Below, piece after piece: positions 9,173-45,151 of a stretch of DNA of 64,000 bases (positions within the stretch are counted from its first letter, which is position 1; every line of letters begins with the position of its first letter). A program made the position numbers and the translations under genes. This DNA is from an uncultured Erysipelotrichaceae bacterium (GTDB lineage Bacteria; Bacillota_I; Bacilli_A; RFN20; CAG-826), in contig OMWW01000002.1 in the NCBI GenBank assembly GCA_900314865.1, positions 66,136-130,135 of the forward strand, written 5' to 3'. The notes under the pieces are model-generated. The model worked only from the letters and a program-made list of their open reading frames with translations. It had not been told where the DNA came from and did no database searches.

Positions 9173-10684
9173 TTAATCTTCGTTAGCGATGGCCGCCATC
9201 GCGTCTTCCCATTCTTTACTTGGAGAATCAAATCTCACGTAGTCTTTATAGAAGAATAAACGCGCTACACCAGTTTGACCAGCACGGTTTTTAGCAACTA
9301 TTACTTCAGTATATGAAGCATTGCCAGGAATTTCCGCACCTAAGTCTTTTTCTTTTTGAGCCTTTGCTAATTCAAATTTATCATTAGCGGTTAATTGACC
9401 GCCCTTCTTATTAGCGGCATTACTGGTCTTCTTATCAGCGTAGTAATCTTCTCTGTAAAGAAGAATAACAATATCCGCGTCTTGTTCGATGTTACCAGAA
9501 TCACGTAAGTCAGACATCACAGGACGTTGAGAATCACGTTTTTCAACCGCTCTAGAAAGTTGGCTAACTGCAATAACAGGAATCTTTAAGTCTCTCGCTA
9601 ACGCTTTTAAGGCTAAAGAGATTTGACGAACTTCTTCTTGTCTACTATCTGGGGAACGACCATTCTTATTAGCGATTTGTACTAAACCTAAATAGTCGAC
9701 CACAATCAAAGCTAAATCAGGTTCATGAGCCTGTAATTTAGTGGATTTAGTAATAATATCGTTTAGTTTAATTGATGGAGTATCATCAATATAAATTTTG
9801 GAATTAGCGAGTGTCTTAATAGAATTAAGAACTTTAACTTTTTCAGTGGCGGAAGTTAATCTACCAGAATTAATTCTCTTCGCATCAACACAGCTATCCA
9901 TCGCCACTAAACGGTTAAAGAGTTGTTCTTTGGACATTTCCAAGGAGAAAATCGCGACTGCTTTTTTAGAGTGAGTAGCGATTTTGTGTGCAAAGTTTAA
10001 ACATAAAGCGGTCTTGCCAACAGCAGGACGAGCAGCAACAACAATCAATTCACCAGGTTTAAAGCCTTGGGTAATTTGATTTAAACGATCATAACCAGTA
10101 GAAACACCAATAACATCGCTATCATTGTCTGCGTCTTGGAGTTTTTCTAAGTCTTGTTGAATAATAGGAGCGATTTCACTAGTGGTCACAAACGAAGAGA
10201 TGTGACGTTTAGAGATGCTAGATTTAAATCTATTCTCACTATCAAGAATGAAGTCGTTGATGTTCTCAATTTCTTCATTACGGTATTCACTATCGATATC
10301 TCTAATGGTGATAAGCATATTTCTAAGAACTGAGTTGTCTTGAATAATACGCATATAAAAAGTTAAGGTTGATGGAGCAACCATGGTGTTTGTACATTCT
10401 GCTAAATATTTAGCGCCACCAACATTTTCAAGTTCTTTAAGATTGTCTAATTCTTCAGCAACAGTTAAAACATCAACATCAACACCTCTAACAGCGAGGG
10501 ATTGAATAGCTCTAAACATGATTTGATGCTTGCCAAGATAAAAATCAGATTCTTCAAGGGTATTTAAAATATCAAGACAATAGTCCTTTTTAAGCATTGC
10601 GCTTCCAAGAACCACTCTTTCAGCGTCCGCGTTAAATGGAAGATCAACAGCAACTTTTTTATTTGAAGATTTACTTGATGCCAT
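9173..10684 (-). CDS. dnaB: Replicative DNA helicase.
   Basis: 503 aa. Walker A motif AARPAVGKTALCLNFA, and the characteristic DnaB N- and C-terminal domains (LPFNADAERVVLGSAML...). Confidence 0.95.
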   Translation of the reverse strand: MASSKSSNKKVAVDLPFNADAERVVLGSAMLKKDYCLDILNTLEESDFYLGKHQIMFRAIQSLAVRGVDVDVLTVAEELDNLKELENVGGAKYLAECTNTMVAPSTLTFYMRIIQDNSVLRNMLITIRDIDSEYRNEEIENINDFILDSENRFKSSISKRHISSFVTTSEIAPIIQQDLEKLQDADNDSDVIGVSTGYDRLNQITQGFKPGELIVVAARPAVGKTALCLNFAHKIATHSKKAVAIFSLEMSKEQLFNRLVAMDSCVDAKRINSGRLTSATEKVKVLNSIKTLANSKIYIDDTPSIKLNDIITKSTKLQAHEPDLALIVVDYLGLVQIANKNGRSPDSRQEEVRQISLALKALARDLKIPVIAVSQLSRAVEKRDSQRPVMSDLRDSGNIEQDADIVILLYREDYYADKKTSNAANKKGGQLTANDKFELAKAQKEKDLGAEIPGNASYTEVIVAKNRAGQTGVARLFFYKDYVRFDSPSKEWEDAMAAIANED

Positions 10685-10686
10685 GT

Positions 10687-11136
10687 CTACTCCTTTCCGC
10701 TGATATGGACGTTAACTTCGCCTACCACACCTTTATATAATTCAATGCGTAAACGATAAGCTCCAAGCATATCAAGAGGTCCTTTATCAATGAATTTTCT
10801 TTTATCAATGACGATGTTATGTTTGGCCTTCATTTCCTCTTCAACTTGTTTTAAAGAGATAGAGCCAAATAACTTCGAATCTTTTCCAACTTTAGCTGAA
10901 AATTCAAGGGTAATTCCCTTTAAAGTTTCAACAAGCTTTAATGCGTCTTTTCTAGCGTTTTCTTCAGCAATTCTGGCATTTTCCTTTTGGTTTTCGAGGA
11001 TTTCGACGCTTTTTTTGCTCACTGGAACCGCTAAATGTTTCTTGAGTAAAAAGTTGTTCGCGTAACCATCACTAACATTGACAGTTTGGTTCTTTTTACC
11101 AACGTTTTTAACATCTGCTAATAAGATAACTTCCAT
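10687..11136 (-). CDS. rplI: 50S ribosomal protein L9.
   Basis: MEVILLADVKNVGKK... The start was moved to the internal ATG at 11134-11136, which has a strong SD (GGAGAGGAG). The track ORF start at 11169 would lie inside gdpP. Confidence 0.9.
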   Translation of the reverse strand: MEVILLADVKNVGKKNQTVNVSDGYANNFLLKKHLAVPVSKKSVEILENQKENARIAEENARKDALKLVETLKGITLEFSAKVGKDSKLFGSISLKQVEEEMKAKHNIVIDKRKFIDKGPLDMLGAYRLRIELYKGVVGEVNVHISGKE

Positions 11137-11137
11137 G

Positions 11138-13198
11138 TTAAATCTCCTCTCCACCTTTCTTAATGCCATCAGATTTTGCTTCTGATAAATATTTTCTAAT
11201 CGTACTAATTAAAATCTCCTCGACTTCATGAACGTTGCTCTTTAGGAATGTAGCAGCGGCACTTGTGAAGTGTCCGCCTCCACCCATACGCTCACATAAT
11301 TTGGAAACGTTAATGAGTCCATCACTACGAGCAGAGATTTTAATTTCTTTGCCACTAGTCTTTCCAATAACAAATGCAGCGTGAATTCCTTTCATTGATA
11401 AACAGGAATTAGCAGCTTTAGCAATGGAAGCGGTGTCATAAATTTTATCTTCACTAGCAATCGCATAGACAACACCATAATCGGCAGTCTTCAATTTGCT
11501 AACAATTGAGGTAATTTCAAGGTACTCTTCATAGTCATCCTTAAGGAGATCATCAGCAACACTATTATCAGCGCCATATTCTTTTAAGATTGTGGAAGCT
11601 TCGAATGTTCGAATACCAGTGTTCTTACTCTTAAAGAAGGAACTATCTAAGAAGATACCAGAGAGCATAATTGTTGCGTAAGTAGGATTGAGCTCAATAC
11701 GAGGAGAAATAGAAGCGAATCTAATAAATTCAGTAATGAGTTCGGAAGCACTACTCGCGGCAGGATCAATATAGTTAAAGACAGGAGATTCGATATATTC
11801 TTCTGCTCTTCTATGATGGTCGATAACGACAATCATATTAGTTTTATCTAACACATCTGGCGCCATAACCATGCTTGGAATATGGACATCACAAACTACA
11901 ACAAGAGTTTCACTCTTAATCAAGCCAAGAGCCTCTCTAGGAGTGACAGTTAAGTTTTCAAGTTCTTCACGGTTGAAACTGCTAGTTAAGGCTGCTCTAG
12001 TTTTAGATTCAGTGGCTTTTAAATCAACGATGAGTTTAGACTCAACGTTCATTCTTTCACAGATTGCTTTAACGCCTAAACAGCTTCCTAAAGCGTCCAT
12101 GTCCATATTAGTGTGGCCCATGATTAAGACGTTAGAAGCATTCTTAATTAAATTAATTAAGGAGTCAGCAAGAACACGAATTTTAACTCTAGAACGTTTT
12201 TCTTGAGCTTCGGTTTTACCACCATAGAATTCCATTTCTTTTCCGTAAACAGAAACAACAACTTGGTCACCACCACGGCTCATCGCAATATCTAAAGCCG
12301 CACTAGCGAGTTCGTTAAGTTTAACGACATCAGGGAAGTCTCTAGCAATACCAATAGAAAGAGTTAATGGAATATTTTCACCAAAAGAAACGGATCTAAC
12401 TTTATCAACAACCGAGAAATTATCCGCTCTCATTTTGGTGTAAGCATCATAGTTACATAACATTAAGTAAGTACTATCTTTAAATCTTCTAAGAAGAATG
12501 CCATATGTTTTAGCATAATCAAAGATTACATCTTTAGCTTTAGTGATGGTGTCGTTATAGTCATCATCACCTTTAATGACTTCTTCATAGTTATCAATAG
12601 ATAAAATGCCAACAACAGGAGCTTGTTGTCTGGAATATGTATAAACAGATTCATAATCAGTTGTATCTTTAAAGATCCATAAGCCAGCGTCACTTAAGAA
12701 CTTCACTTCATAGTTACGGTTATTGATAATAATTTTCTTAACAACCGTGCTATTACTCTTTTCTTTGAGCTCTCTTAATTCGGATTGCCATTCAAAAATA
12801 TTGAGGTCAATGATATCAAGATGACGTTCTTTAAATAAATCATTGGTCCAAATGACCGTGTCATTATCATCAGTGACCGCTAGACCAATCATCGCGAAGT
12901 TATATGCTTCTTGAACGTCACTACCAATAACTTCAGCGGCTTTTAAGTCAGTTCTATGTCGATAAGAAGAAATCCTAGCGCTAGAAATAGCAACAAACAA
13001 AGTGTTGACCGCCACTAAAGAGGCCGCTCCTATACAAACATATTCAGGAATACAAATCTCTTGAGTGTGGAAGAAGTTATTAAAATAAAAGACGATAAAG
13101 GTAGCAATACCAAGTACTTCTAATATAACGATTGAAAAGCCTAAAGCTTTAGTGCGACTAATTTTCTTTTTCATAGTAAATCTATTATACATACTCAC
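11138..13198 (-). CDS. gdpP: c-di-AMP phosphodiesterase GdpP: two N-terminal TM helices, a PAS/degenerate-GGDEF region, and DHH and DHHA1 domains.
   Basis: DHH motif (VIDHHRR) and GGGH motif. It keeps the conserved gdpP-rplI-dnaB synteny of Firmicutes. Confidence 0.85.
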   Translation of the reverse strand: MSMYNRFTMKKKISRTKALGFSIVILEVLGIATFIVFYFNNFFHTQEICIPEYVCIGAASLVAVNTLFVAISSARISSYRHRTDLKAAEVIGSDVQEAYNFAMIGLAVTDDNDTVIWTNDLFKERHLDIIDLNIFEWQSELRELKEKSNSTVVKKIIINNRNYEVKFLSDAGLWIFKDTTDYESVYTYSRQQAPVVGILSIDNYEEVIKGDDDYNDTITKAKDVIFDYAKTYGILLRRFKDSTYLMLCNYDAYTKMRADNFSVVDKVRSVSFGENIPLTLSIGIARDFPDVVKLNELASAALDIAMSRGGDQVVVSVYGKEMEFYGGKTEAQEKRSRVKIRVLADSLINLIKNASNVLIMGHTNMDMDALGSCLGVKAICERMNVESKLIVDLKATESKTRAALTSSFNREELENLTVTPREALGLIKSETLVVVCDVHIPSMVMAPDVLDKTNMIVVIDHHRRAEEYIESPVFNYIDPAASSASELITEFIRFASISPRIELNPTYATIMLSGIFLDSSFFKSKNTGIRTFEASTILKEYGADNSVADDLLKDDYEEYLEITSIVSKLKTADYGVVYAIASEDKIYDTASIAKAANSCLSMKGIHAAFVIGKTSGKEIKISARSDGLINVSKLCERMGGGGHFTSAAATFLKSNVHEVEEILISTIRKYLSEAKSDGIKKGGEEI

Positions 13199-17178: not shown

Positions 17179-17856
17179 TTATCTAATCTTTAATTTCTTT
17201 AAATATTCTTTGTGTTCTTCACTCACTCTATATGATTCTATCGCTTTTTGAATAGCCTTGTTATGAGTAAAGGAATCAAATGATTTATCTTTGATAGGTT
17301 TGACAAATGAATCGTAGTTCTTCGCTAACCCAGTAGCAAGATACCACGCGATCATCATCTTAACGTAGTAATCATCAAGTTTAACTTCTTTCACTTTATC
17401 GATGTGTTCTTCTTTGAAATCTTCATCAAGGTAATAATTCATTAAGCACTTAACAGCGTATCTGACTCGATATAGTTCATCACTCTTAAGCCACTTATAT
17501 ATTTCCTTAATTAATTTATCTTTATATTTATTCAAATGCTTATTGCAGATTGCGTCAGACACACTCCAATTAGTGACATAAGGAAGAAAAGAGTCGACTT
17601 CCTTAATGAATTCATCATAATCTTTAATGTTTGAGAGAATAAAAGCGTGTAATAAATTCTCTTCATGATAAACGTGTGGAAGAGAAGATAAAAATTCTTT
17701 TCTTTCTACTTCAGTTAACTCCTTCGCATACTTTTTTATTAAAGGAAGACGAACCCCGATAAATGTCGTTTCATCAACGTTAGGAATTAGAGGCAAAGTA
17801 AAATCACGATACTTTTGATCTTGCAGTGACAAAAGGTGTTTTTGAATGTCCGTCAT
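17179..17856 (-). CDS. DNA alkylation repair enzyme-like (AlkD/AlkC HEAT-repeat family) protein.
   Basis: 225-aa alpha-helical protein starting MTDIQKHLLSLQDQKYRDF..., resembling DNA_alkylation repair family proteins. Confidence 0.5.
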   Translation of the reverse strand: MTDIQKHLLSLQDQKYRDFTLPLIPNVDETTFIGVRLPLIKKYAKELTEVERKEFLSSLPHVYHEENLLHAFILSNIKDYDEFIKEVDSFLPYVTNWSVSDAICNKHLNKYKDKLIKEIYKWLKSDELYRVRYAVKCLMNYYLDEDFKEEHIDKVKEVKLDDYYVKMMIAWYLATGLAKNYDSFVKPIKDKSFDSFTHNKAIQKAIESYRVSEEHKEYLKKLKIR

Positions 17857-20116: not shown

Positions 20117-21739
20117 ATGAATATTAGATATCTCAAAAAAGGTAAAGAATATTCTAATTTCGATACCTGTAAAGATTTCGAAATTGAAGTGACGAAGAAA
20201 AACGGAAAAAATTCTGTCACTTTAATCGCGAAGACTGATATCGAACTTATTGACGCAGTGGAACTACTTCCAATTCCTACCAATCTCCATGATTTATATT
20301 TCTTAAATGGATATCAATCTTGGACAGACACTAAGGAATTTAAACTTGCTGATCGTCTTCGTAACATCAAGAAATCTCCACATATCATCTCGCATATGTT
20401 TGCAATGCAAGCCTATGGAGATAACCACTTCTACCACTACTCGATTATAAAATCCCATGGTTATGATCTCTTTTATAGTAAGGGAGAACATGAATCATTC
20501 ATCTTCAATGTTAACTTTGAAGTTGCTTACTTAATCATTGAAATCATCAAAAATAAAAGAACAACATTGAGATTAATCTCTGACTTAGAGGGCTGTAAGC
20601 TCAAAAAAGGTGAAAGCGTTCGTATCTTTGATTACTACTACTTCCCAGATTTCAAAGAAGGACTTGAATGTTTCTATAAACACGTCCCAATTGAAAAAAG
20701 AGAAAAAATCTTTGGTTACACCTCTTGGTATAACTACTATCAAAACATCAACGAAGAAATCATTCTTCGTGATTTAAAAGCCTTAGACAATAGATTCAAT
20801 CTCTTCCAAATCGACGATGGATATGAATCGTTCGTGGGAGATTGGCTTGAAGTTGATAAGAAGAAATTCCCTAATGGCTTAGAACCAATCGTCAAAGAAA
20901 TCCACTCTCGCGGATTTAAAGCAGGTATATGGCTTGCTCCATTTGTCGCAGAAACCAAATCTAAGTTATTTAAAGAACACAAAAATTGGATTGCTAAAGA
21001 CGAACACGGAAAGATGATAATCGCTGGAGGAAACTGGTCTAAACACTACGTCCTAGACTTAACCAAAGAAGAAGTGAGGAACTATATCGAAAAATGTTTA
21101 AAACATTATATGGATATGGGTTTTGATTTCTTTAAACTCGACTTCCTCTACGCAGCGGGATTAAGAAACTTTAAAGGAACCGGTAGAACACGTTGCCAAG
21201 GTCAAAAACAAGCCTATGACTTCTTAAGAAATATTCTTAAAGACAAACTAGTGCTTGGCTGTGGAGCAAACCTCCTCAATTCCTGGGGTAGTTTCGATTA
21301 TCTCCGTATTGGCCCAGACGTCTCTTTAACATTTGATGATGCCGCCTATATGAGAATGTTCCATAGAGAAAGACCATCCACAAAAGTGACTATTCAAAAC
21401 ACAATATATCGTTCAATATACGATCAAAGATTATTCGCTAACGACCCGGATGTCTTCTTATTAAGAGATGATAATATCGGACTAAGCTTTGAACAAAGAA
21501 AAGCCTTAACCACTATTAACGCTTTATTTGGCTCAGTACTAATGACTTCCGATAACATCGCTACTTATGATGACAAGAAGAAAAAGGTCCTTTCTGAAGC
21601 ATTAGATTTATTCGAAAACGCAACAGAAAAGCACTATGTCAAGCGTAAACACTATATCGATATTGAATATCAACTAAAGGGAAAGAAACATTCCTTTACC
21701 TATAACACTAAGAAAGGAGTTATGAGTAATGTTAGATAA
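20117..21739 (+). CDS. Alpha-galactosidase-like glycoside hydrolase (clan GH-D, GH36-like short form).
   Basis: FQIDDGYE and GFDFFKLDF motifs resemble the GH27/GH36 catalytic regions. The start is 2 nt after the symporter stop. Confidence 0.55.
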   Translation: MNIRYLKKGKEYSNFDTCKDFEIEVTKKNGKNSVTLIAKTDIELIDAVELLPIPTNLHDLYFLNGYQSWTDTKEFKLADRLRNIKKSPHIISHMFAMQAYGDNHFYHYSIIKSHGYDLFYSKGEHESFIFNVNFEVAYLIIEIIKNKRTTLRLISDLEGCKLKKGESVRIFDYYYFPDFKEGLECFYKHVPIEKREKIFGYTSWYNYYQNINEEIILRDLKALDNRFNLFQIDDGYESFVGDWLEVDKKKFPNGLEPIVKEIHSRGFKAGIWLAPFVAETKSKLFKEHKNWIAKDEHGKMIIAGGNWSKHYVLDLTKEEVRNYIEKCLKHYMDMGFDFFKLDFLYAAGLRNFKGTGRTRCQGQKQAYDFLRNILKDKLVLGCGANLLNSWGSFDYLRIGPDVSLTFDDAAYMRMFHRERPSTKVTIQNTIYRSIYDQRLFANDPDVFLLRDDNIGLSFEQRKALTTINALFGSVLMTSDNIATYDDKKKKVLSEALDLFENATEKHYVKRKHYIDIEYQLKGKKHSFTYNTKKGVMSNVR

Positions 21740-23165
21740 AAGTTCTGTAATATTTAATAACCCAATGGACAAAAAGACCGTTAAGGGTGCGAACAAATCC
21801 AAAAAGAAATACATCAAAAAATATGGTGATGATTCTAAAAAGGATTACAAGATTAGCTTTAAAGACATCGATACCTTAGACTATATCAAGGCTAGTAACA
21901 TCGTCTTTGGAGAAAGTAATCAAAAATTTGAAGATAACGCTCTTATCGTTGGTAATATCCGTATGGGTTTTGGCCACTACCGCATTTCCATTGCTATGGC
22001 CTCTGCCGCTAGAGCGTTAGGTTTCAAACCATATTGGTTAGACTTAGCGTCTTTTGATGCGACTGGTTCAAAAATGATCCGTGAACAAAATGATATGTAC
22101 TCATTAGCATCACGTATCTCTCAAAAATCAAAGCTCTTTAATAAACTTGTTTGGGAACCACTCAACTCCGAAGGATTTAAGAAGATTACCTATAACGCGA
22201 AAGATCAAAAAAATAGCGAGCTTCTCGTCCCTATCTTCAAAAACATCGATAAAGAAATCCCTTATATCGCCACTCACGTGTGGCCAAGCCAAGCCGCGAT
22301 TCATGCGGGTATGAAGAATGTTGTTAACGCCATTCCTGATAACTGGCCAATGGGATTACACCTTTCTGAAGGCGCAATCCATACTGTTCAAACTCCATTT
22401 GCTTACTTTGGTTATAAGACCTTAAATGGTTTTGCTAAAAAACCACTCAACGGTATCCCTGAAAGTGATTTAAAAATGGTTGGTTGCTACATTGACCACG
22501 AATTACTTGTTAACCTTGAAGAAGATAACAAACTTCGTAAAGAAAGAATCGCTAATGGTAAACCACTCAGAATCCTTATGACAGTAGGAGGAGCGGGAGC
22601 AGGATTTGATATGTTCCTCGCTATGGTAAAACACTTAATCCCATACGTCAAAGAAAACAAAGTCGCTCTCTTCATCAACTTTGGTGACCATCTTGATGTT
22701 TATGAAAAACTTTGTAAGAAAATTAGCGGTATTAAAACCACCAATTACTTCAATCAATATGGGGAATTGAAAGAATTCGTTAAAAATATTAGACATGGCG
22801 AAGCTACTGGAATCTACGCGATTTATAACAAAGACATCTTTGAAGCTGTATATTCCACTAACTTATTAATGCCTGTCACTGACTTATTAGTCACAAAACC
22901 AAGCGAATTAGCGTATTACCCAATTCCAAAGCTCTTCATGAGACATATTGGTGGTCATGAAGTATATGGAGGAATTAACGGAAGAGAATATGGTGATTCT
23001 ATTCCAGAATGTCCTACTAAAAAAGAAATCAATGCGATGTTAGATAAGATTATCTCTGACAAAGAATTAATCCCACACATCTGTGATCGTATCGATTATT
23101 TAAAGAAAGTTGGTCATTATGATGGAGCGTACGAATGTGTTAAACTCGCCGCTCACATGAAATAA
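21729..23165 (+). CDS. Putative GT-B fold glycosyltransferase (MGDG-synthase/UgtP-like), or an uncharacterised sugar-cluster protein.
   Basis: N-terminal glycine-rich IRMGFGHYRI and C-terminal VTKPSELAYYPIPKLFM...GHE resemble GT28-type signatures. This assignment is uncertain. Confidence 0.35.
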   Translation: MLDKSSVIFNNPMDKKTVKGANKSKKKYIKKYGDDSKKDYKISFKDIDTLDYIKASNIVFGESNQKFEDNALIVGNIRMGFGHYRISIAMASAARALGFKPYWLDLASFDATGSKMIREQNDMYSLASRISQKSKLFNKLVWEPLNSEGFKKITYNAKDQKNSELLVPIFKNIDKEIPYIATHVWPSQAAIHAGMKNVVNAIPDNWPMGLHLSEGAIHTVQTPFAYFGYKTLNGFAKKPLNGIPESDLKMVGCYIDHELLVNLEEDNKLRKERIANGKPLRILMTVGGAGAGFDMFLAMVKHLIPYVKENKVALFINFGDHLDVYEKLCKKISGIKTTNYFNQYGELKEFVKNIRHGEATGIYAIYNKDIFEAVYSTNLLMPVTDLLVTKPSELAYYPIPKLFMRHIGGHEVYGGINGREYGDSIPECPTKKEINAMLDKIISDKELIPHICDRIDYLKKVGHYDGAYECVKLAAHMK

Positions 23166-23289
23166 TTTGACATTTACATCATCAAAAAGGTGGCTCGTCC
23201 ACTTTTTTGTAGTCCGAAACTTTTTTCTAGGATTAATCATTAAAATGTCTTTTTAAGATAGTAAAATATTTTAGATGAGGTATAATAAA

Positions 23290-23400
23290 AACTACATATC
23301 GGCAAACCCGGAGTAATCCGGCGACGCAAAGCTAAAGGGTCCAGTGAAAATTGGATAGCCAGTTGCACTTATAACAAAACCATTTTTGTGCACGTTTGCG
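23290..23400 (+). promoter_or_regulatory. c-di-GMP-I (GEMM) riboswitch with an expression platform.
   Basis: GGCAAACC is followed by a GNRA hairpin (CCGGAGUAAUCCGG), then GACGCAAAGC, then a UCCAGU-GAAA-AUUGGA hairpin. These are hallmark GEMM-I elements. A TATAAT at 23281 precedes it. A downstream hairpin with a U-run (CGUUUGCGGUUUUUUGU) lies before the GGDEF start. Confidence 0.7.
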
Positions 23401-23432
23401 GTTTTTTGTCGGTATTAATTACCGATTTTTTT

Positions 23433-24980
23433 ATGGAACAAGTAAAGAAAAAAAGAAAATTTAAGTTCCCTCTTTGGGCTAAAACACTTATCGTGCTTCT
23501 ATTAAGCGTTACTGCTGTAAGCGTGGTTGCGGTTGTTTATTCATCTCGTTATTTGAAAAAAACAACCATGCAAAGTTATGTTGATAAATCCGTTCATCTC
23601 GCAGATACATTAGGTGTTTATCTTAACTATGACGAAGTACTTGCAGTTAGAGATAAGACAAAAGAAATCTATGAAACCGTTGTTCCTGCTGATGCATTTG
23701 TGTCAAATGATAGTTGGGGCGAAGATATTTGGTTAACATATCTCCACTACTTTGATGAAGTGGTCAATATGGTGGAATACCAAAACATCTTAAAAGATAT
23801 CGAAGCTTTCCATAAAGTTAATGAGGCTAAATATACATATGTTGCTTATGTTGATTGGACTAACGAAAGATTAATCTACCTCATTGATGATTCTCCTCTA
23901 GGAGAAGAAGATCCTGATGTTCCTGACGCTCCGATCATAGATGGAGAAAGATGCTTACCAGGTACTTTCGATGATTTTACCGAGCAAGATAAAACTATAT
24001 ATTCACATATAGCAGAAGGTTTCTATTCTGAAGTCACTAATATGGAACAATACGGTTACCTTGTCAGTGTTGGTCGTCCAGTCTTCAAAAAAGGAGAAGG
24101 AATTGATAAAAACGATAAGAACAACGTTGAATTCTTTACTCTTGTAGACTTATCAATGGATGCGATTATTGCCGAACAATCAAGAAGTGTTCAAACTTTA
24201 GCGTGGATTCTTGTTATTTTAGGTGTTGCCGCGGTTATCGTTGGTTATTTTTTGGTCGTCCTATTCATTCTTAGACCAGTTAGAAAATTAACCAAAGCCG
24301 CGAATGAATACACAGAAGGTTCTGGAGAAGAGTTAGATAAATTCGCAAAAGTGAAGATTCGTACAAGAGACGAGATTGAGGACTTGTCCAATTCTATGAA
24401 GAAAATGGAAGGTGATATTAATAAATATATTGCGGATTTATTATCAACCTCCAGTAAACTAGAAGGCGCAAAACGTAAAGCGGATGAAATGAAATCTCTC
24501 GCTGATAAAGATGCCTTGACTGGTATAGCCAATAAACGTGCCTATTTTGAAACTGAAGAAAGATTGAACAAAGAAATCAAACAAGGAAAAGCAAGATTCG
24601 CTATTTCGATGATTGACTTGAACGATCTAAAACTCACTAATGATACATTAGGCCATGAAAAAGGTGATGAGCTCATCATCGGATTAAGTAACATTATCAG
24701 AGAAACATTCACCTCCTCTAGCTTATATCGTATTGGTGGAGATGAATTCGCTGTTATATCTGAAAACGGAGACTTAAAAGACATTGATGTTCTTCAAAAG
24801 AAATTCGTTGATGCAATTAATAAATCTATCAAAGCGAAAGACGTTGATGGAATGGGTGTTTCCGCTGCTATAGGTTTTGCAATCTTTGATCCTAAGATTG
24901 ACAACAACGTTGAAGATACATTCAAACGTGCAGACAAAAAGATGTACGAAAACAAAAAGATGATGAAGGGAAGTAACTAA
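23433..24980 (+). CDS. Diguanylate cyclase (GGDEF) with two TM helices flanking a periplasmic-type sensor domain.
   Basis: RIGGDEF active site and an upstream coiled-coil. The start was moved to MEQVKKKRK, because the track start overlaps the riboswitch terminator. Confidence 0.8.
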   Translation: MEQVKKKRKFKFPLWAKTLIVLLLSVTAVSVVAVVYSSRYLKKTTMQSYVDKSVHLADTLGVYLNYDEVLAVRDKTKEIYETVVPADAFVSNDSWGEDIWLTYLHYFDEVVNMVEYQNILKDIEAFHKVNEAKYTYVAYVDWTNERLIYLIDDSPLGEEDPDVPDAPIIDGERCLPGTFDDFTEQDKTIYSHIAEGFYSEVTNMEQYGYLVSVGRPVFKKGEGIDKNDKNNVEFFTLVDLSMDAIIAEQSRSVQTLAWILVILGVAAVIVGYFLVVLFILRPVRKLTKAANEYTEGSGEELDKFAKVKIRTRDEIEDLSNSMKKMEGDINKYIADLLSTSSKLEGAKRKADEMKSLADKDALTGIANKRAYFETEERLNKEIKQGKARFAISMIDLNDLKLTNDTLGHEKGDELIIGLSNIIRETFTSSSLYRIGGDEFAVISENGDLKDIDVLQKKFVDAINKSIKAKDVDGMGVSAAIGFAIFDPKIDNNVEDTFKRADKKMYENKKMMKGSN

Positions 24981-24995
24981 TACTTCCTTTTATTT

Positions 24996-25026
24996 TAAAA
25001 GTCGCCCTTTCGGACGACTTATTTTA
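24996..25026. terminator. Intrinsic terminator between the convergent GGDEF genes.
   Basis: AAAAGTCGCCCTTTCGGACGACTTATTTT, a member of the recurring hairpin family. Confidence 0.6.
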
Positions 25027-26700
25027 TTTATCAATATTTTTCTTTCTTGAACGCTTATTCTCATACATCAAGTGATCAGCGTGAATAAGAACATCATTAG
25101 CGGTTCGATCGATTTCGTGATCATATGTAGCAACACCAACAGAAACTTTGATTTGTTCCCAAGGCTCCTTAGATAACGCACATATGTCTTTACTCTTTTC
25201 AAGGAAGATCTTCTTCAATTTTTCTCTATTCTTATAATCTTCACCTTGAAGAATAATCGCGAATTCGTCGCCTCCTAAACGATAAATAATACTATTTTGG
25301 AAAACACGTGTCATAAGAACGCTTGAGTTCTTTAAATAGACATTGCCTTTATCGTGTCCATATTTATCATTAATATCTTTGAGATTGTCACAGTCAAACA
25401 TCGCAATTGCAAACTCAATTGGTTTATCTGATTTATCGATGGTTTCTTGTAATTCCAATAACGCTTCATCAAAAGCAGATTTGTTTTTAGTTGATGTTAA
25501 TGCATCGGCGTAGGCCATAGAGTTAAGATCATCAATATAATCGCCTAGATGAGAAACAAGTTTATTTGTCGCTGCGGTAAGCTCACCAATCTCATCGTTA
25601 CCGCGATAATTGAGTTCAAAACTGTAATTACCATCATTAATCTTTTCGGCGGCCTCGGTTAATTCTTTAAGTGGTTTAGTAATTTTTCTAGTATAAAGAA
25701 TCGTTACTAGTATAGTTAAACCAATTAAAAATAAAGACACAGAGGCGATAATAATAACAGTGTTTATCCAAGTTTCATTGACTTCTTTTAAAGGAACAGC
25801 AACAACGATGTTCATATCATTACTAAGTCTTAGCCAATAACCATGTTTTTTCACACCACCAAAGGTGTATTCGATATGATGTTTTTCGCTTTTAATGCTG
25901 TTATAAAATTCTTCTGGGATACTTGGCCTTTCACTTGGGTCCATGCCTAAAATATCAAGGTGAGGATGATAAATGATTGAGCCATCTTTATTATCAACAA
26001 TGAAGGCAAAACCAGTTTTATGGACAACGATGTCTTTAATTTGCTCACCCAAGGTGCTGTAATTGATTTCAATTCCTACTACACCAATAAAGGTCTCGTT
26101 TTCTCCAGATTTTCTATATACAGGAGCGTTATATGATATAACGGTTACTTGTTCAAGACTATCAGTGTCATATGGTGTTAACCACACCGGTGCTTTGGTT
26201 TCTTTAGGAATCCAAAACCATGGACATTTATTTTTGCTATCAGAAATATCGGTGACTGGAGTATCGACAAAACCTTTTCCATCTAAATCTGTGTACCAGA
26301 ATCCTTTTTCGTTAGTAACATCAGTTATATCTGGATCCATACGGTAATAGAAAGTTAACACTCCATTAGTGTGAGTAGCAGCTTCTAAAAAGATGTTTCT
26401 TGCTTGATAGACATGATCAGCAAACTTAGTATTAAATTCGCTATCGTCAATTGCATCAAGATTATCATCAATCAATCTCGAAACAGTTTTCACTGATTGC
26501 TCAACACTCTTAAAATAATAGTTAAGATTGCTTTTACCAGTTTCACATAACAAGTAAAGAGCCTGTTCAGAACTCTTGTGGCCCGAGCTAGCAATCGAAA
26601 TCGAACCAATTGATGAGGTGATGAGAATTGAAACTGAGACCGCAATAGCGTTAAGAACCGCAATTCTAATCCTCAATGTTTTTCTTCTTTTTGCTGCCAT
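25024..26700 (-). CDS. Diguanylate cyclase (GGDEF) with an N-terminal TM helix, an extracellular Cache-like sensor and a second TM helix.
   Basis: RLGGDEF motif, with TM helices at residues ~10-35 and ~300-325. Confidence 0.8.
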   Translation of the reverse strand: MAAKRRKTLRIRIAVLNAIAVSVSILITSSIGSISIASSGHKSSEQALYLLCETGKSNLNYYFKSVEQSVKTVSRLIDDNLDAIDDSEFNTKFADHVYQARNIFLEAATHTNGVLTFYYRMDPDITDVTNEKGFWYTDLDGKGFVDTPVTDISDSKNKCPWFWIPKETKAPVWLTPYDTDSLEQVTVISYNAPVYRKSGENETFIGVVGIEINYSTLGEQIKDIVVHKTGFAFIVDNKDGSIIYHPHLDILGMDPSERPSIPEEFYNSIKSEKHHIEYTFGGVKKHGYWLRLSNDMNIVVAVPLKEVNETWINTVIIIASVSLFLIGLTILVTILYTRKITKPLKELTEAAEKINDGNYSFELNYRGNDEIGELTAATNKLVSHLGDYIDDLNSMAYADALTSTKNKSAFDEALLELQETIDKSDKPIEFAIAMFDCDNLKDINDKYGHDKGNVYLKNSSVLMTRVFQNSIIYRLGGDEFAIILQGEDYKNREKLKKIFLEKSKDICALSKEPWEQIKVSVGVATYDHEIDRTANDVLIHADHLMYENKRSRKKNIDK

Positions 26701-28385: not shown

Positions 28386-28420
28386 AAAAGTCGCCCATCT
28401 TGGACGACTTATTTTTTATA
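28386..28420. terminator. Intrinsic terminator, bidirectional.
   Basis: AAAAAAGTCGCCCATCTTGGACGACTTATTTTTT. Confidence 0.6.
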
Positions 28421-28432
28421 ACAATCTTCAGA

Positions 28433-28708
28433 TCAGATGGTCAAATTTTCTTCAATTAGTTTGTTTATTAAATTTCTAGATTTGTCTAAAGAGTAGCCTT
28501 CTTCACCAGTAAGTCTTGCTGCAAAGGCTTCTAGCACTAGTTGCTGAGCCTGTAGCTCTTGTTCTCTCTTTTCAAAAGAGGAAATATCCATAACTACTAA
28601 TTCACTTTTTCCGTTTTTAGTTATGTAAATAGGTTTCCCGCTTCCTTTGCATTTTTTAACAGCTTCTTCGTATTTTAACTGGATACCATCAGATGTTGTG
28701 ATTCTCAT
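28433..28708 (-). CDS. Orphan Phd/YefM-like type II antitoxin.
   Basis: PIYITKNGKSELVVMDISSF matches the YefM/Phd pattern. No cognate toxin ORF is adjacent. Confidence 0.45.
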   Translation of the reverse strand: MRITTSDGIQLKYEEAVKKCKGSGKPIYITKNGKSELVVMDISSFEKREQELQAQQLVLEAFAARLTGEEGYSLDKSRNLINKLIEENLTI

Positions 28709-29024
28709 ACAAAACCCCTTTAAATAAATTTAGTAGATTTTTTAATGTTTTACAATTTGTCTCAAAAAAACATTTTATCAATGTCTCAGCGACAATTAAG
28801 CGAAGTAAAAAACATTACTGTATAGTTTTTCATACTACTTTATGAAATTTGATAAATCTTAGAGGTACAGATTATGAAGAAAAACGCAATCTTAAATGCG
28901 CTTAATCTAAATTAGTTAAATGAAATAAAATCCGAAATTTAGATTCGAACTTTTTTAAACTTAACGATACAAAATTTATAAACACTGCAACAAAACTAGA
29001 AAGGATCGGCCAAACCGATCTTTT

Positions 29025-29300
29025 CTAATTATCTCCGTAGTGTGACCACATTGAATGAACAACAATTGTGTTAATATCTTCGTGAACTTTGTAAACGAGC
29101 CTATGTTGAAGATTAATTCTTCTAGAATAATAGCCTTGTAAATCGCCAACAAGTTTTTCATAACTTGGTGGGTTTTGAAAAGGGTTTTTAGCGATAAGGT
29201 TTAATAATTTCTTTACTTTATCTTCCAATCCAGCGCTTTTAAGTAGTTTTTTATCTTTCTCAGCGTTTTTAGTGAATTTAATAATCCACATAACTACCAC
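29025..29300 (-). CDS. yoeB: YoeB/Txe family type II toxin (mRNA interferase).
   Basis: YYSRRINLQHRLVYKV...IVVHSMWSHY matches the YoeB signature. The probable start is the internal Met (MWIIKF...). Confidence 0.85.
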   Translation of the reverse strand: MVVMWIIKFTKNAEKDKKLLKSAGLEDKVKKLLNLIAKNPFQNPPSYEKLVGDLQGYYSRRINLQHRLVYKVHEDINTIVVHSMWSHYGDN

Positions 29301-29545
29301 TCTTCATTTGGATTATAAGTAGACATTTTAGAAATATCTTCTTTTTCGCCTTCTTTAATCTTTTCAACAAGACCTTTCTGAGAAACTAAATAAATAGTTT
29401 CCAACATAGCGTTGTATTCAGCTTCAGAGATAATAACTGCGTTTCCATTTTTTGTGTTCACAGTGATGGAGTCATTAAACTCAATGACGTTATCAATAGA
29501 ACTAAAGAGATTTTTTCTCAAAACAGAAATATTTGTAACTGCCAT
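29294..29545 (-). CDS. yefM: YefM/Phd family antitoxin.
   Basis: MAVTNISVLRKNLFSSIDNV...AVIISEAEYNAMLETIYL, the canonical YefM sequence. It overlaps the yoeB start. Confidence 0.85.
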   Translation of the reverse strand: MAVTNISVLRKNLFSSIDNVIEFNDSITVNTKNGNAVIISEAEYNAMLETIYLVSQKGLVEKIKEGEKEDISKMSTYNPNEEW

Positions 29546-29740
29546 AAGCTTTTCCTCCTGATTTCATTATACATAATTTATGTACGTAATCAAGTACAAT
29601 TGTTCTCTTTTATGTACATATAATTATCCAGTGGAGGACGTCAACTTAGCTAGTTTTACTATGGCTTCTTAACTATCTCGTACCAATTAACCTAAATGGT
29701 TCAGGCTTAGGTTTAGTGTAAATATATTCAATGAACATCA

Positions 29741-29770
29741 AAAAAGCGCCGGATTTATTCCGGCGTTTCT
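29741..29770. terminator. Intrinsic terminator of the ABC exporter operon.
   Basis: AAAAAGCGCCGGATTTATTCCGGCGTTTCTTTCTTTTT. Confidence 0.6.
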
Positions 29771-29793
29771 TTCTTTTTGGGTTTAAAACTCTA

Positions 29794-34862: not shown

Positions 34863-36353
34863 TTATTGTTCGAGCTGAGGAATTTCAACTTTGTAGTGAA
34901 CCACTAACCTTTTGACCTTAAAGAAGTTAACGTTACTAATATTATCAGGAATACTGATTTTGATTTCGTCTTTTGTAAAGCTATCGATATAGAATTTAGA
35001 AATCTTTTCGTTGTCAGTATCATCGATATTTAATTTGGTATGGGCAAAATTGCCACCAGTAATTGAAAGATCATCTCTTGCGCCCACTTCACTCATATCG
35101 AGCACTAATTCAATGCAGCTAACTTTATCAGGATCGAAGTCTTTGACATCAACCTTATCTTGGTTGCCTTTTCCGTCCGCTTTATAGTATTTACTATAAT
35201 TTTTGTTTAAGCGTAAATAAGGAGTTAGGGCAGATGTGCCTCTAGCGTGTTGATGCCATAAATCATCTTCATCATAGCTTTGAGTTTCACAATGGCCTTT
35301 TCCACTAATGGTGTCAACATAACTTTCGAGATCATAATATGCGCCATCATAAGATTTAACGAATGTATCAGTTTCTTCTTCACGCCACACCATATTATCA
35401 AGCCATTTTTCTTGATAGCATAGTCTAACACCTTGTCTAAAAGTTTCACTTGGTGCTTCGATAAATTCTGCAACAAACTTATAAACACCGTCTTGTTCAG
35501 TTACGAACGTGTAATCAGCATCGGTGCTAATGATTTGTTCGCTGCCATTTAAATGCCATCCCTTAAAGAGACAGAAATTATCATTTTGATAATTATAGAA
35601 TGGGTAAGCATGAATTGTGACAGAAGTTCCATTAGCGACAACTTTATAGCCTTTATTATTCGCTACCGCATTATCGATAGCAACATTGCCTTTTGAGGAA
35701 TCAGAACTCGTTACACTGACATAGGTTTTCGTGCTTTCGCAACTAAAATAATATTTAACAGAATCGATTACCCATGTATTGCCACTATAGAAATAGTCTT
35801 TGTTACCAATATAATAATAAGCACTACCTTCTCTATCAAAACCACTACCTGTGTTTATAACATAAGTGTAATCATATTCTTTTACAGAATGAATACTACT
35901 TGTAGCATTTGTCAGAGTGTCCTTATCTAAATTAGCCATATCAGGATCGGCAAGATAATAGACATATAATGCATAGTAATACCCTAAACTTGTGCCACTC
36001 AGATAATGGCCAGTGATATCCATTCTTGTGACACCTCTAAGTGGGGTTTCGTTGATTAAATAATCATTAGCGCTTGTCATTTCTAGAGCAACACCCTCTT
36101 TAGTGGAAGGAGCTGATTTCGTTTTAAAAACTATATCATTGCCAAGACCAGTTTTAAACGTACCTCTATACACATCTCCATCTTGCACAAAGTTAGATTT
36201 ATTTGATGCGTCGATAGTTAATGTGTAATCATTCTCTGCACGAGTTCGAAGACTAATAAAGTCATTAGTACTCATAAAAGTAGCAATACCAATACATATT
36301 GATAAAGTTACTGTAGTAATAGTAGTAAGAGTGAATAAATCTTTCTTTTTCAT
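34863..36353 (-). CDS. Secreted or surface protein of unknown function.
   Basis: Start reassigned to ATG 36351-36353 (MKKKDLFTLTTITTVTLSICIGIATF..., a signal/anchor sequence) with SD GAGGT. The track's GTG-initiated N-terminal extension contains the promoter -10 TATAAT. Confidence 0.6.
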   Translation of the reverse strand: MKKKDLFTLTTITTVTLSICIGIATFMSTNDFISLRTRAENDYTLTIDASNKSNFVQDGDVYRGTFKTGLGNDIVFKTKSAPSTKEGVALEMTSANDYLINETPLRGVTRMDITGHYLSGTSLGYYYALYVYYLADPDMANLDKDTLTNATSSIHSVKEYDYTYVINTGSGFDREGSAYYYIGNKDYFYSGNTWVIDSVKYYFSCESTKTYVSVTSSDSSKGNVAIDNAVANNKGYKVVANGTSVTIHAYPFYNYQNDNFCLFKGWHLNGSEQIISTDADYTFVTEQDGVYKFVAEFIEAPSETFRQGVRLCYQEKWLDNMVWREEETDTFVKSYDGAYYDLESYVDTISGKGHCETQSYDEDDLWHQHARGTSALTPYLRLNKNYSKYYKADGKGNQDKVDVKDFDPDKVSCIELVLDMSEVGARDDLSITGGNFAHTKLNIDDTDNEKISKFYIDSFTKDEIKISIPDNISNVNFFKVKRLVVHYKVEIPQLEQ

Positions 36354-36383
36354 ATTATTTACCTCACACATATTATACGCGTG

Positions 36384-36404
36384 CTGTGTCACAAAAGTGT
36401 CACA
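36384..36404 (-). promoter_or_regulatory. Tandem direct-repeat promoter motif (TGTGACAC-TTT-TGTGACAC-N8-TATAAT).
   Basis: Seen directly in the minus-strand sequence. See the shared motif at 33947 and 43862. Confidence 0.45.
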
Positions 36405-36744
36405 AAAAAGGACGCCACTGTGGGCGACTTAATTTTTATTGATTTAGCCTAAATTTAGAGCCTTACCATATGTGTCGAATGATTCCTGTGAAAGGAGAGA
36501 AAGTATGAAAAATGATCAAGTGTTAGTAGATCTTAATTTGTGTTTTGTGTTTTGATTAATTAATTATTTGTGAGTAAGTTATCTATGTCAATTGTTGAAT
36601 AGAGATTTTTCGCGCTAGAAAAATGCGTTTTTATTATTTCTTTTCTCATTTTTTTACACTGAATCATACTAAATAAATAATTCCTTGAATTACGAAGTTA
36701 AAAGTTATATAACTTTAGATACTTTGTTTAGGAGAGTGAATACT

Positions 36745-38019
36745 ATGAAAATTAGAAATATCATTGCTACTTCGTTATTAGGGCTCATATCTATTGCTGG
36801 ATTATCTTCTTTATTAATCAATAAGACTAATAAACCAGTTATCGCTAAAGCAGAAGATGAAGTAACCATGAAAAGAACCTATGTCGGAATTGATCGAGAT
36901 GGAAAAATGGAGAACGCTGATCAATATTTAAATGCTGAAGGAGTTAAGGCGGTTGTTTGGTGTTTTACTGGAGATTTTAGTCTTACTGAATCAAACGGAG
37001 AATTATTTGATATCACTGTGATTGGTCCTCGACTTGGAATTACTGAATTACCAGTTAATCTTCCAAAAAGTAGAATCTTTAGAACTCCTATTTCCACTCC
37101 AGCAGGAATTACATCTCTAAAAGATGTCACTATTTATAATATGTCTAAAGAAGATATTATTAGATATGACTCTCCAAACACTATTACAGTAGGCGATTGG
37201 GATTATGCTACTTATACCCTCGGCATGAGAGATGAAAAATTTAAATTTATGCCATCAGGCACTACTGTTACTTTAGATCTCACTGAATGCGATATCAATT
37301 GGTTAGATGCTTACGCGACACATTATTTTGTAAGCTATTGTTATTTTGATTACATGTTTAGCTATACATCTATTTTTGTGAAAATGGAATTTGACACTAC
37401 ATTAAATAAATTAGTCGCAACTACCACTCAAGATATTTGGTGTACAGGTATTATCTTTACTAGAAACGATCCAAATGGAACTCCATATAGCTGGGAGTCA
37501 AAATGGAATCAAACCACTAATCAAGATGATGTAGAAAGTTCATGCAACTTCAAAATGTTAGAAGGCAAATTTGGAGATAATTATAACTGTGCCTCAGTAG
37601 ATGATATTGAACGTACTGAAATATACGCACAAAAGATATTAGATAAATTTACTTGTACCGGAGAAACTAGAAGCTTCTCTAACGATGATTGGGTTTATTT
37701 CTTCTTTGATTTACAATATGAATCTTATTCATTTAAAGATTTGCTTAAAACCTCAGTGGCTAAAGAAAGTTCTACTTATCTTAGAGAAGTAGCCTTATAT
37801 AGATATGACTATGTAGTTTTCTATAAAGATTATGGCTTATATGATTATATGGATAGAGGTAGCTCTCCAAATAAAGCCTTCTCAGCAAAGAACACATCCA
37901 CTAGTGGCGTCTTAAATGATTTGAGCTCTGATAGCACTCCAATATTAATTGTTGTTGCCGCTACTGCTACTTTATCATTAACCGCTTTACTTATTATCAA
38001 AAAGAAAAAAAGTAGATAA
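36745..38019 (+). CDS. Surface-anchored protein of unknown function.
   Basis: Start moved to MKIRNIIATSLLGLISIAGL (signal peptide; SD AGGAGAG). A C-terminal hydrophobic segment is followed by a KKKKSR tail, as in the nuclease. Confidence 0.6.
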   Translation: MKIRNIIATSLLGLISIAGLSSLLINKTNKPVIAKAEDEVTMKRTYVGIDRDGKMENADQYLNAEGVKAVVWCFTGDFSLTESNGELFDITVIGPRLGITELPVNLPKSRIFRTPISTPAGITSLKDVTIYNMSKEDIIRYDSPNTITVGDWDYATYTLGMRDEKFKFMPSGTTVTLDLTECDINWLDAYATHYFVSYCYFDYMFSYTSIFVKMEFDTTLNKLVATTTQDIWCTGIIFTRNDPNGTPYSWESKWNQTTNQDDVESSCNFKMLEGKFGDNYNCASVDDIERTEIYAQKILDKFTCTGETRSFSNDDWVYFFFDLQYESYSFKDLLKTSVAKESSTYLREVALYRYDYVVFYKDYGLYDYMDRGSSPNKAFSAKNTSTSGVLNDLSSDSTPILIVVAATATLSLTALLIIKKKKSR

Positions 38020-39824: not shown

Positions 39825-39836
39825 AGTATCTGCTCC

Positions 39837-43822: not shown

Positions 43823-43861
43823 ATTTTCGCACCCTCAAAATGCTTATAGATATTATCATTT

Positions 43862-43883
43862 TTGTGTAACAAAAGCACCACAA
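43862..43883 (-). promoter_or_regulatory. Tandem direct-repeat promoter motif (TGTGGTGC-TTT-TGTTACAC-N8-TAATAT).
   Basis: Same spacing and architecture as the motifs at 33947 and 36384. Confidence 0.4.
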
Positions 43884-43977
43884 AACTAAAAATCGCTGAA
43901 AATATTTGATAGTGTCTATAAATATTAATATATTGACTAAATTTTGCTTTCCCCGAAAAGAGCCTCCGCCAACTGTC

Positions 43978-44850: not shown

Positions 44851-45151
44851 TTTTCATGAGAATTTGCTATAATAAATTTGCAAGAACGGAAGCCCATTGA
44901 ACTACTGCTGCAAATCAAGTGTTAAATGGCTTCTTTTTTATTTGAAGATTAAGATCAGCAAACAAAGCAACAAGCAGAGAACTATTAGAGAAATCACTTT
45001 CTTTAAAGGTTCCATGGCATTACCCCCCTTTCTATATTTCTATAGTTCAAGAGGCGTATCCGTTCCGAGTTTTAATGACTTTTCTTTGTCTTAATTATCA
45101 TATCAAAAAAGTTGTTAATTTTACAACTGATATATAAAAGGATTTATATAG

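Follow-up and report, generated by a model that had tools for sequence, protein, structure and literature searches.

A c-di-GMP-I riboswitch as the probable transcriptional OFF switch of a GGDEF sensor cyclase gene in an uncultured member of the Bacillota

Riboswitches for cyclic di-GMP (c-di-GMP) mostly control motility, adhesins, and pili and rarely the enzymes that make or break this second messenger (PMC6366702). Among the described systems, Cd1 (Cdi-1-3) of the flgB operon in Clostridioides difficile is an experimentally validated class I aptamer of a low-GC Firmicute that acts as an OFF switch by transcription termination, and in C. difficile each of the seven class I riboswitches that function is an OFF switch of the termination type (PMC6366702). 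Vc2 of Vibrio cholerae, in which a GAAA loop docks into an 11-nt tetraloop receptor and a P1 closing helix is present, does not act by termination (PMC6366702). The GEMM gene list of Weinberg et al. (2007) already holds the same RNA family together with the same class of downstream gene as the locus described here, with GGDEF, HAMP, and Cache all listed beside HD-GYP (PMC1950547), and c-di-GMP is known to limit its own synthesis through the RxxD inhibitory site (I-site) of PleD, WspR, and GacA (PMC6456294). In the literature that we searched, we found neither an experimentally characterised feedback from a riboswitch to a cyclase nor anything on c-di-GMP in Erysipelotrichia. Here, we describe a c-di-GMP-I (GEMM-I) riboswitch in a 64-kb window (the whole stretch of DNA analysed, from contig OMWW01000002.1 of an uncultured Erysipelotrichaceae bacterium), and we consider it likely, from sequence analysis, that this RNA is functional, makes up the entire 5' leader of a monocistronic sensor cyclase gene (23433-24980, plus strand), and acts on that gene as a transcriptional OFF switch.

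The aptamer was identified by a covariance-model scan of both strands of the window with the 4227 families of Rfam 15. The region 23291-23370 on the plus strand matched the c-di-GMP-I family (RF01051) with 58.0 bits against a gathering score of 35 (cmscan E value 9.8e-9), and the match spanned model positions 1-87 of 87 without truncation. Only two RNAs in the window scored above the gathering score, this aptamer and a tmRNA. In a permissive scan (E <= 1), RF01051 was the top family of its clan (CL00126) at 23291-23370, and no second riboswitch match or other credible addition was obtained in the window. The initial annotation, which was made from the letters alone, had proposed a GEMM-I riboswitch here, and the covariance-model score, well above the gathering score, bears this out. 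The P1/P2 architecture that it described likewise aligns to the model with the G, A, and C ligand contacts in place, and the leader motifs on which it relied were all found, namely GGCAAACC (23301-23308), the GUAA-capped hairpin, GACGCAAAGC (23323-23332), and a second, GAAA-capped hairpin.

In the model alignment, the 5' strand of the aptamer, AUAUCGGCAAA (23296-23306; hereafter the P strand), which is also the proposed 5' half of an antiterminator, contains G23301 (the equivalent of G20), the P1a pairs G23302-C23327 and C23303-G23326, and the AAA internal loop; it is unchanged in nine of the ten leaders that we aligned. The P1b hairpin that follows (23307-23322) is capped by the GNRA tetraloop GUAA and has five Watson-Crick pairs and one C.C mismatch in the window. 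Across all 10 leaders, five of its six pairs keep standard pairing, and the closing C.C is unpaired in every leader. P1 reads GC/AAA/CCCGGA-GUAA-UCCGGC/GAC/GC and is followed by an AAA linker to P2 (23328-23330), matching the feature definition of GEMM-I, in which this linker is "virtually always" found (PMC1950547). The P2 hairpin (23330-23364) has its inner stem at 23342-23353 and a GAAA loop at 23346-23349, and the 11-nt tetraloop receptor is absent from it, the receptor columns (CUAA/AUG) being gaps in the model alignment. Because the receptor is optional, about half of GEMMs being without one, its absence does not count against membership of RF01051; further, members with a GYRA loop almost never carry a receptor, so that a GUAA loop without a receptor fits the rule given when the motif was discovered (PMC1950547). 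The 3' strand of the aptamer, UGCAC (23364-23368; hereafter the A strand), is unchanged among the leaders and includes C23366, which the model alignment equates with the C that forms a Watson-Crick pair with one ligand guanine.

Alignment to the model thus places the ligand contacts at G23301, A23328, and C23366. We assume that the Vc2 contact numbers A47 and C92 apply to the last two, and we take A23328 to be the base that, in the Vc2 structure, intercalates between the ligand bases. The position equivalent to G20 is the selectivity determinant, an A there giving the GEMM-Ib RNAs specific for cyclic GMP-AMP (cGAMP) (PMC9262584); read in these terms, the contact positions of the window RNA show the c-di-GMP pattern and not the A-for-G pattern of the cGAMP-selective relatives. 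Vc2 and the window RNA align in the AAA linker, the GNRA loop of P1, and the G20/A47/C92-type contacts; the loop of the window RNA is GUAA, and this RNA lacks a receptor. No canonical P1 closing helix was found: only three to five A/U pairs are possible, with a 4-nt bulge offset, and they are inconsistent across the leaders. Cd1 is also without this helix. By every defining feature of sequence and structure tested, this RNA belongs to the c-di-GMP-I family.

A perfect -10 hexamer, TATAAT, lies at 23281-23286 (plus strand), with no good -35 element upstream, and implies a transcription start at about 23293-23294, which would put the P strand at the very 5' end of the mRNA; a -10-like hexamer is found 8-14 nt upstream of the P strand in all riboswitch-bearing orthologous leaders. 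The upstream genes, encoding an MFS_2 transporter, a GH31-like hydrolase, and a DUF6937/DUF6938 protein, end at 23165, and a hairpin with a U-run, identified by eye, follows this sugar operon at 23189-23208. Because of this hairpin and the TATAAT at 23281, we take the riboswitch and the cyclase gene to form their own transcription unit. At the other end of the leader, the terminator scan listed an intrinsic terminator at 23408-23432 (GUCGGUA-UUAAU-UACCGAU, then U7), with a 7-bp stem that includes three G-C pairs, a 5-nt loop, and a U-tract that directly abuts the ATG at 23433. This is the hairpin with a U-tract that the initial annotation had noticed ahead of the GGDEF start codon. Its stem and U-tract are invariant in eight leaders, whereas its loops differ in length and sequence.

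We note that the 5' arm of this terminator has an alternative partner within the aptamer. The P strand AUAUCGGCAAA is complementary, over 11 bp including two G.U pairs, to UUUGUCGGUAU (23405-23415; hereafter the T strand), and the T strand can pair instead with UACCGAU (23420-23426), which forms the terminator. Further, GUGCA (23388-23392; the X strand) is complementary to the A strand and would form a 5-bp anti-aptamer helix with it. In the alignment of 10 leaders, 96.3% of the cells of the P.T helix are paired, compared with 28-57% in slid controls; for the A.X helix the value is 91.8%, with one-sided C-to-U changes that retain G.U, and for the two helices jointly it is 94.9%, against 28-57% with slid partners. 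When the leaders were cut before the 3' arm of the terminator, the P.T helix was part of the minimum free energy (MFE) structure computed with ViennaRNA for the window and for the orthologous loci L001, L002, L003, L017, L022, and L023, and in L001, L017, L022, and L023 it was also part of the MFE structure of the full leader. The best downstream partner of a 15-nt P strand was the terminator 5' arm, with duplex energies of -10.9 to -15.1 kcal/mol (RNAduplex); for 9 of the 11 leaders, 0-15 of 500 dinucleotide shuffles gave an equally good duplex. In the window itself, the two folds are nearly isoenergetic, at -35.5 kcal/mol for the antiterminator and -34.4 kcal/mol for aptamer plus terminator, with the energy of ligand binding excluded from these values. 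The initial annotation had called the platform OFF-type, and the conserved 11-bp alternative partner of the terminator 5' arm lends support to that prediction.

One further complementary stretch, GUUUGCG at 23394-23400, matches the aptamer junction CGCAAA(C). It occurs only in the window and its closest relatives and is absent from L002 and L003, and we regard it as an accessory element at best. Two candidates that involve this region were rejected as core elements, as the UUUGCGG segment is missing in L002 and L003: a first terminator candidate, AAAACC...GGUUUUUU at 23376-23407, and the long-range GCAAAC/GUUUGC helix of the unconstrained MFE structure.

The association between riboswitch and gene is conserved. 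A scan of species-representative genomes gave three clear orthologs of the cyclase (67%, 53%, and 51% identity), all with RF01051 immediately upstream, and 11 further loci came from a metagenome scan (at least three loci) and from eight look-ups of proteins obtained in a profile search, in which the cyclase family comprised 95 clusters at 42-97% identity. In 11 of the 14 related loci (L001, L002, L003, L015, L016, L017, L018, L019, L022, L023, and L024), an RF01051 match scoring 49.8-57 bits immediately precedes the ortholog, and the orthologs in these loci are 42-76% identical at the protein level. In the alignment of leaders, the aptamer core, UUUGUCGGUAU, UACCGAU, and the U-tract are invariant, and the loops and spacers vary in length and sequence. 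Two diverged leader types appear, from their sequences, to rebuild the same logic with different terminators. In L017 and L023, the complement of the P strand, GUUUGUGUCGAUAUU, sits in the loop of a different terminator, and a G-to-A change turns a U.G pair into U-A; this complement (L017 735-800, L023 615-685) occupies the 16-nt loop, and not an arm, of a hairpin UCAGUGC...GCACUGA followed by U6, an unusual geometry for an antiterminator. In L024, the aptamer-complementary stretch overlies the 5' arm of a third terminator, which is followed by a normal AGGAGGA Shine-Dalgarno sequence.

From these pairings we propose the following mechanism. At low c-di-GMP, the 5'-terminal AUAUCGGCAAA (23296-23306) would pair with UUUGUCGGUAU (23405-23415), and UGCAC (23364-23368), which contains the ligand-pairing C, would pair with GUGCA (23388-23392); the two alternative helices would dismantle the ligand pocket and occupy the terminator 5' arm, and RNA polymerase would transcribe on into the gene. 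When c-di-GMP is high, the bound ligand would lock G23301, the G-C and C-G pairs, and C23366 into the aptamer, and the freed UUUGUCGGUAU would then pair with UACCGAU, with transcription halting at U7 just before the ATG. The outcome would be negative feedback of c-di-GMP on one of its synthases. We favour OFF over ON because the only strong alternative partner of the terminator 5' arm is the very core strand that the ligand would sequester. OFF behaviour would also be in line with that of the functional class I riboswitches of C. difficile (PMC6366702). More speculatively, the terminator hairpin may also limit initiation on read-through RNAs, and in the antiterminator fold the AUG would be preceded by U-rich, unpaired RNA.

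The regulated gene encodes a 515-residue protein that was examined by translation, Pfam, sequence matches to diguanylate cyclases in the Protein Data Bank (PDB), AlphaFold, and Foldseek. It is laid out as a transmembrane segment, an extracytoplasmic alpha/beta domain (approximately residues 38-245), a second transmembrane segment, a HAMP-like linker, and a GGDEF domain. The last matches PF00990 with 92.9 bits against a cut-off of 23.8, and the HAMP match is sub-threshold. The protein has the RIGGDEF motif, the D..N D..GHxxGD block, and the C-terminal RAD..MY, none of which varies in 43 family members, and its GGDEF domain has the N and D residues that contact guanine; it is 30% identical to the Thermotoga maritima diguanylate cyclase 4urs. 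It carries the canonical Asp of c-di-GMP synthases, in place of which the cGAMP-making Hypr enzymes have Ser (PMC6456294). An AlphaFold model built with 43 family members (mean pLDDT, the predicted local distance difference test, of 85) shows a transmembrane helix that continues as a long helix, an extracytoplasmic domain of helices and beta-sheet, a second transmembrane segment, a helical linker, and a GGDEF fold, and the topology of the modelled sensor domain looks PDC/Cache-like. When the full model was compared with the PDB by Foldseek, GGDEF domains dominated the matches, and only the whole-chain model of WalK resembled the overall layout. By all sequence criteria, then, the protein is a GGDEF-family cyclase, and the earlier statement that the leader precedes a sensor GGDEF gene holds, given a membrane protein with an intact GGDEF motif.

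The second GGDEF gene is convergent with the first (25024-26700, minus strand) and encodes a 558-residue protein with dCache_1, HAMP, and GGDEF domains (Pfam), as had been noticed from the sequence as a Cache-like neighbour; it is 31% identical to the 515-residue cyclase over the stretch from the second transmembrane segment through HAMP to GGDEF. The Rfam scan of the window placed no riboswitch at this gene. A TATAAT lies 7 nt before its ATG, and its mRNA looks leaderless. The two genes are separated by a hairpin at 25000-25019, AGUCGCCC-UUUC-GGACGACU, seen by eye, with one internal mismatch and T-rich runs flanking it on both strands; it is absent from the list of the consensus terminator scan and is probably a bidirectional terminator. 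The two GGDEF genes do not show conserved synteny, and a divergent neighbour of 566 residues in L001 is unrelated. The RxxD I-site, which lies five residues before GGDEF, is optional and not defining for GGDEF cyclases. It is missing from both the 515-residue cyclase (FTSS-SLYRI-GGDEF) and the paralog (FQNS-IIYRL-GGDEF), and the consensus of the cyclase family agrees. I-site inhibition acts allosterically on the protein, whereas at this locus the predicted target of the feedback is the mRNA, and the RNA may supply the product feedback that the RxxD-less cyclase lacks.

Several observations weigh against the OFF-switch model or weaken the support for it. First, the duplex test was not significant in L022 and L024, where 62-66 of 500 shuffles equalled the observed energy, and the unconstrained MFE structure of the full window leader retains the terminator. 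Second, the P and T strands are nearly invariant, so that no compensatory change was seen across the 10 leaders in either the antiterminator (no pair changed on both sides) or the terminator; the only such change lies in the P2 stem (helix 4), and covariation tests on the 10 leaders (0-1 compensatory changes) gave no support beyond conservation, the shuffles being uninformative. Because the leaders share a phylogenetic history, conserved pairing counts for less than covariation would. Third, a helix that closes about 100 nt through the extreme 5' strand may be kinetically unfavourable. Fourth, the antiterminator of Cd1 is built differently, from the 3' aptamer strand (A) and T (PMC9262584), whereas here it would be formed by the 5' strand (P) in a helix that encloses the aptamer. 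Fifth, the orthologs in L020, L021, and L025 are without a riboswitch, so that RNA control, gained or lost in the course of the family's history, is not essential to it. These three orthologs (29-53% identity) are preceded only by short promoter-like intergenic regions (L020 626-700, L021 637-700, and L025 202-403). Finally, cyclase activity is assumed from motifs.

Three other explanations have to be set against termination by an OFF switch. The one that survives best, though we consider it unlikely, is that control is mainly translational, with the hairpin gating an AUG that has no Shine-Dalgarno sequence and the U-tract serving as a ribosome standby or enhancer site and not as a termination signal. 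The ATG at 23433 is indeed without a Shine-Dalgarno sequence, the 25 nt before it being terminator and U-tract, and the hairpin ends 7 nt upstream of the ATG, an arrangement kept in eight leaders. Non-canonical initiation also seems common in the window, as about 40% of its open reading frames (ORFs) are without a recognisable Shine-Dalgarno sequence, and the class I riboswitches of V. cholerae do not act by termination (PMC6366702). On the other hand, a G+C-containing stem directly before seven U residues is the canonical signature of an intrinsic terminator, riboswitches of low-GC Firmicutes usually use termination (PMC6366702), and the separate terminator of L024, followed by its own Shine-Dalgarno sequence, points to termination as the conserved output of the family. 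The two mechanisms are not mutually exclusive.

Improbable, in our estimate, is a genuine riboswitch of the opposite sign, in which c-di-GMP prevents the terminator from forming and raises expression of the cyclase, giving positive feedback and a bistable commitment switch. The commonest arrangement in the GEMM survey, a terminator in competition with P2's 3' side, predicts ON behaviour (PMC1950547), class I ON switches such as Bc2 of Bacillus thuringiensis exist (PMC6366702), and, as said, the window leader has its terminator in the MFE structure without any ligand. However, the terminator at 23408-23432 lies 38 nt past the aptamer and shares no nucleotide with it, and a folded aptamer could not occlude it; the only strong alternative partner of its 5' arm is, again, the core strand sequestered by the ligand. 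Sensing of a different cyclic dinucleotide by the aptamer (3',3'-cGAMP, as in GEMM-Ib), or its decay into a non-functional relic, is very improbable: GEMM-Ib RNAs were long annotated as c-di-GMP-I and match the same Rfam model (PMC9262584, PMC6456294), and some C. difficile copies are non-functional (PMC6366702), but the RNA has G and not A at the selectivity position and keeps both the A and the C contact, the cyclase under its control carries the Asp that is canonical for c-di-GMP synthases (PMC6456294), and the aptamer core stays essentially invariant among leaders in which loops and spacers have diverged and whose proteins share only 42-76% identity.

Returning to the termination OFF switch that we favour, its closest counterpart in design is Cd1, in that the ligand-pairing C would be sequestered in the non-terminating fold of both RNAs, by G147-C87 and C148-G86 in Cd1 (PMC9262584) and, as predicted, by GUGCA (23388-92) with UGCAC (23364-68) here. 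Cd1 controls flagellar genes, whereas the window riboswitch precedes the gene of a c-di-GMP enzyme; Cd1 has been validated by experiment, and the window switch is predicted from sequence analysis. When we looked for an antiterminator of the A plus T type, the 3' strand of the aptamer proved not to be complementary to the terminator 5' arm, and only the short A.X helix was found. It is possible, and we put this forward tentatively, that the leader exemplifies a variant "mirror-image anti-aptamer" platform, in which the segment 23388-23415 complements the aptamer core strands in reverse order and the extreme 5' strand P forms the antiterminator; combined with a terminator joined to a start codon lacking a Shine-Dalgarno sequence, this would amount to a two-level RNA feedback on an I-site-less cyclase in an uncultured rumen or gut lineage of Bacilli near the Mollicutes. 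Wiring of this kind was not found described for class I riboswitches in the literature that we searched. The pairing of the riboswitch class with a cyclase gene is itself not confined to this family: in the cultured, Clostridium-class bacterium Marasmitruncus massiliensis (L007), an RF01051 match of 67.8 bits lies directly before a dCache-PAS-GGDEF gene, with an expression platform that differs from that of the window. The pairing is therefore recurrent, as the 2007 list had indicated (PMC1950547).

The position of the start codon affects how this family is annotated. The longest ORF, 23388-24980, begins at a GTG (23388) inside the riboswitch leader, whereas the conserved N-terminus of the family, M-x-x-x-KKK-R-F-R-F-P-L-W-A-K, starts at ATG 23433. 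An exact-sequence look-up of the 515-residue protein returned no match, the public gene models using an upstream start; one of them, P0003, has 530 residues and is 97% identical to the cyclase. The family models P0003, P0007, and P0002 (530, 528, and 544 residues) start at a GTG or ATG inside the riboswitch leader, and their N-termini are probably mis-annotated. Elsewhere in the window, a TATAAT lies 6-11 nt before an ATG without a Shine-Dalgarno sequence at 413-1810, 17179-17856, 25024-26700, and 49501-50394 (all minus strand), which suggests that these genes are leaderless.

As for the organism, the initial annotation had held that Mollicutes generally lack c-di-GMP signalling, and it offered as one alternative that the bacterium is a Firmicute. 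Acholeplasmas use the standard code, and a TGA stop therefore excludes only the code-4 Mollicutes. TGA serves as the stop in 7 of 49 window ORFs; in one of them, which encodes a SPOUT methyltransferase, the Pfam domain has been matched in full by the time the TGA is reached. Among the products encoded in the window are [FeFe]-hydrogenase-like proteins, rubrerythrin, a SpoIIE-type phosphatase, and those of a DnaB/L9/GdpP cluster. DnaB is 88-99% identical to proteins of metagenome-assembled genomes (MAGs), the named ones belonging to "Bacilli bacterium" (88%), and the cyclase orthologs of the species-representative scan come from MAGs titled uncultured Erysipelotrichaceae (two, from the rumen), a family of the Bacillota, and uncultured Bacillales (one); no named Mollicute was among the relatives matched. 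The sequence evidence points to an anaerobic member of the Bacillota that is not a code-4 Mollicute, in agreement with the Firmicute alternative. The general statement about Mollicutes was too broad, as Acholeplasma laidlawii, a Mollicute, has 14 GGDEF/EAL proteins (PMC2408644). Several proteins rich in Ser, Thr, Asn, and Asp, presumably the Mollicutes-like surface proteins of the initial annotation, are encoded at 34863-38019 and 43127-46125. They belong to no Pfam family and begin with a signal peptide or a lipobox-like N-terminus (MKKSLLIAGITSILSC at 45256-46125 is an example), and such secreted proteins and lipoproteins are not diagnostic of Mollicutes. No EAL, HD-GYP, or PilZ domain was found by Pfam among 56 ORFs of the window. 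A GdpP-type c-di-AMP phosphodiesterase (GGDEF_GdpP, DHH, and DHHA1 domains) is encoded at 11138-13198 (minus strand) in the conserved rplI-dnaB neighbourhood (9173-11169), and the organism therefore also has c-di-AMP turnover.

The remaining genes of the window include those of the sugar operon that ends at 23165, in which an MFS_2 sugar transporter and a GH31/melibiase-like hydrolase lie downstream of a TetR regulator; its last gene (21729-23165, plus strand) encodes a 478-residue protein with DUF6937 and DUF6938 (368 and 284 bits), an uncharacterised but strongly conserved component of the sugar pathway. The tmRNA gene (3085-3474, minus strand; RF00023, 111.4 bits, full length) adjoins a gene for a 909-residue secreted protein with Endonuclease_1 and Big_2 domains (3533-6262, minus strand). 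At 38394-42684 (minus strand), two genes for proteins like the large subunit of [FeFe]-hydrogenase, one with an extra PF04060 Fe-S domain, flank a gene for a SpoIIE/PP2C-type phosphatase, an arrangement that suggests a regulatory cluster with sensory, and not catalytic, hydrogenases. A DDE transposase (DDE_Tnp_1_6, DUF772) at 46382-47977 (minus strand), where the local G+C content is slightly lower (0.33), probably marks an insertion sequence. A Phd/YefM-type antitoxin ORF of 91 codons (28433-28708, minus strand) and a small unannotated ORF nearby, in a gene-poor stretch at 28400-29790, are a possible type II toxin-antitoxin pair.

Overall, GGDEF genes have been on the GEMM list since 2007, and the window case is a new, well-conserved example of a known association that leaves knowledge of the riboswitch class itself unchanged, although the wiring of its expression platform is possibly unusual. 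It is a clean, conserved, and monocistronic case in which a second messenger appears to throttle the transcription of one of its own synthases, an enzyme without an I-site, and the locus would be a convenient system for studying RNA-level c-di-GMP homeostasis and offers a specific, mutable prediction, that of an OFF switch wired through the 5' strand of the aptamer. For the gene family, starts placed inside the riboswitch leader should be corrected. For the lineage, a poorly known, MAG-only, Mollicute-related branch of the Bacillota, the locus indicates that c-di-GMP signalling is present at least in its synthesis and sensing parts.

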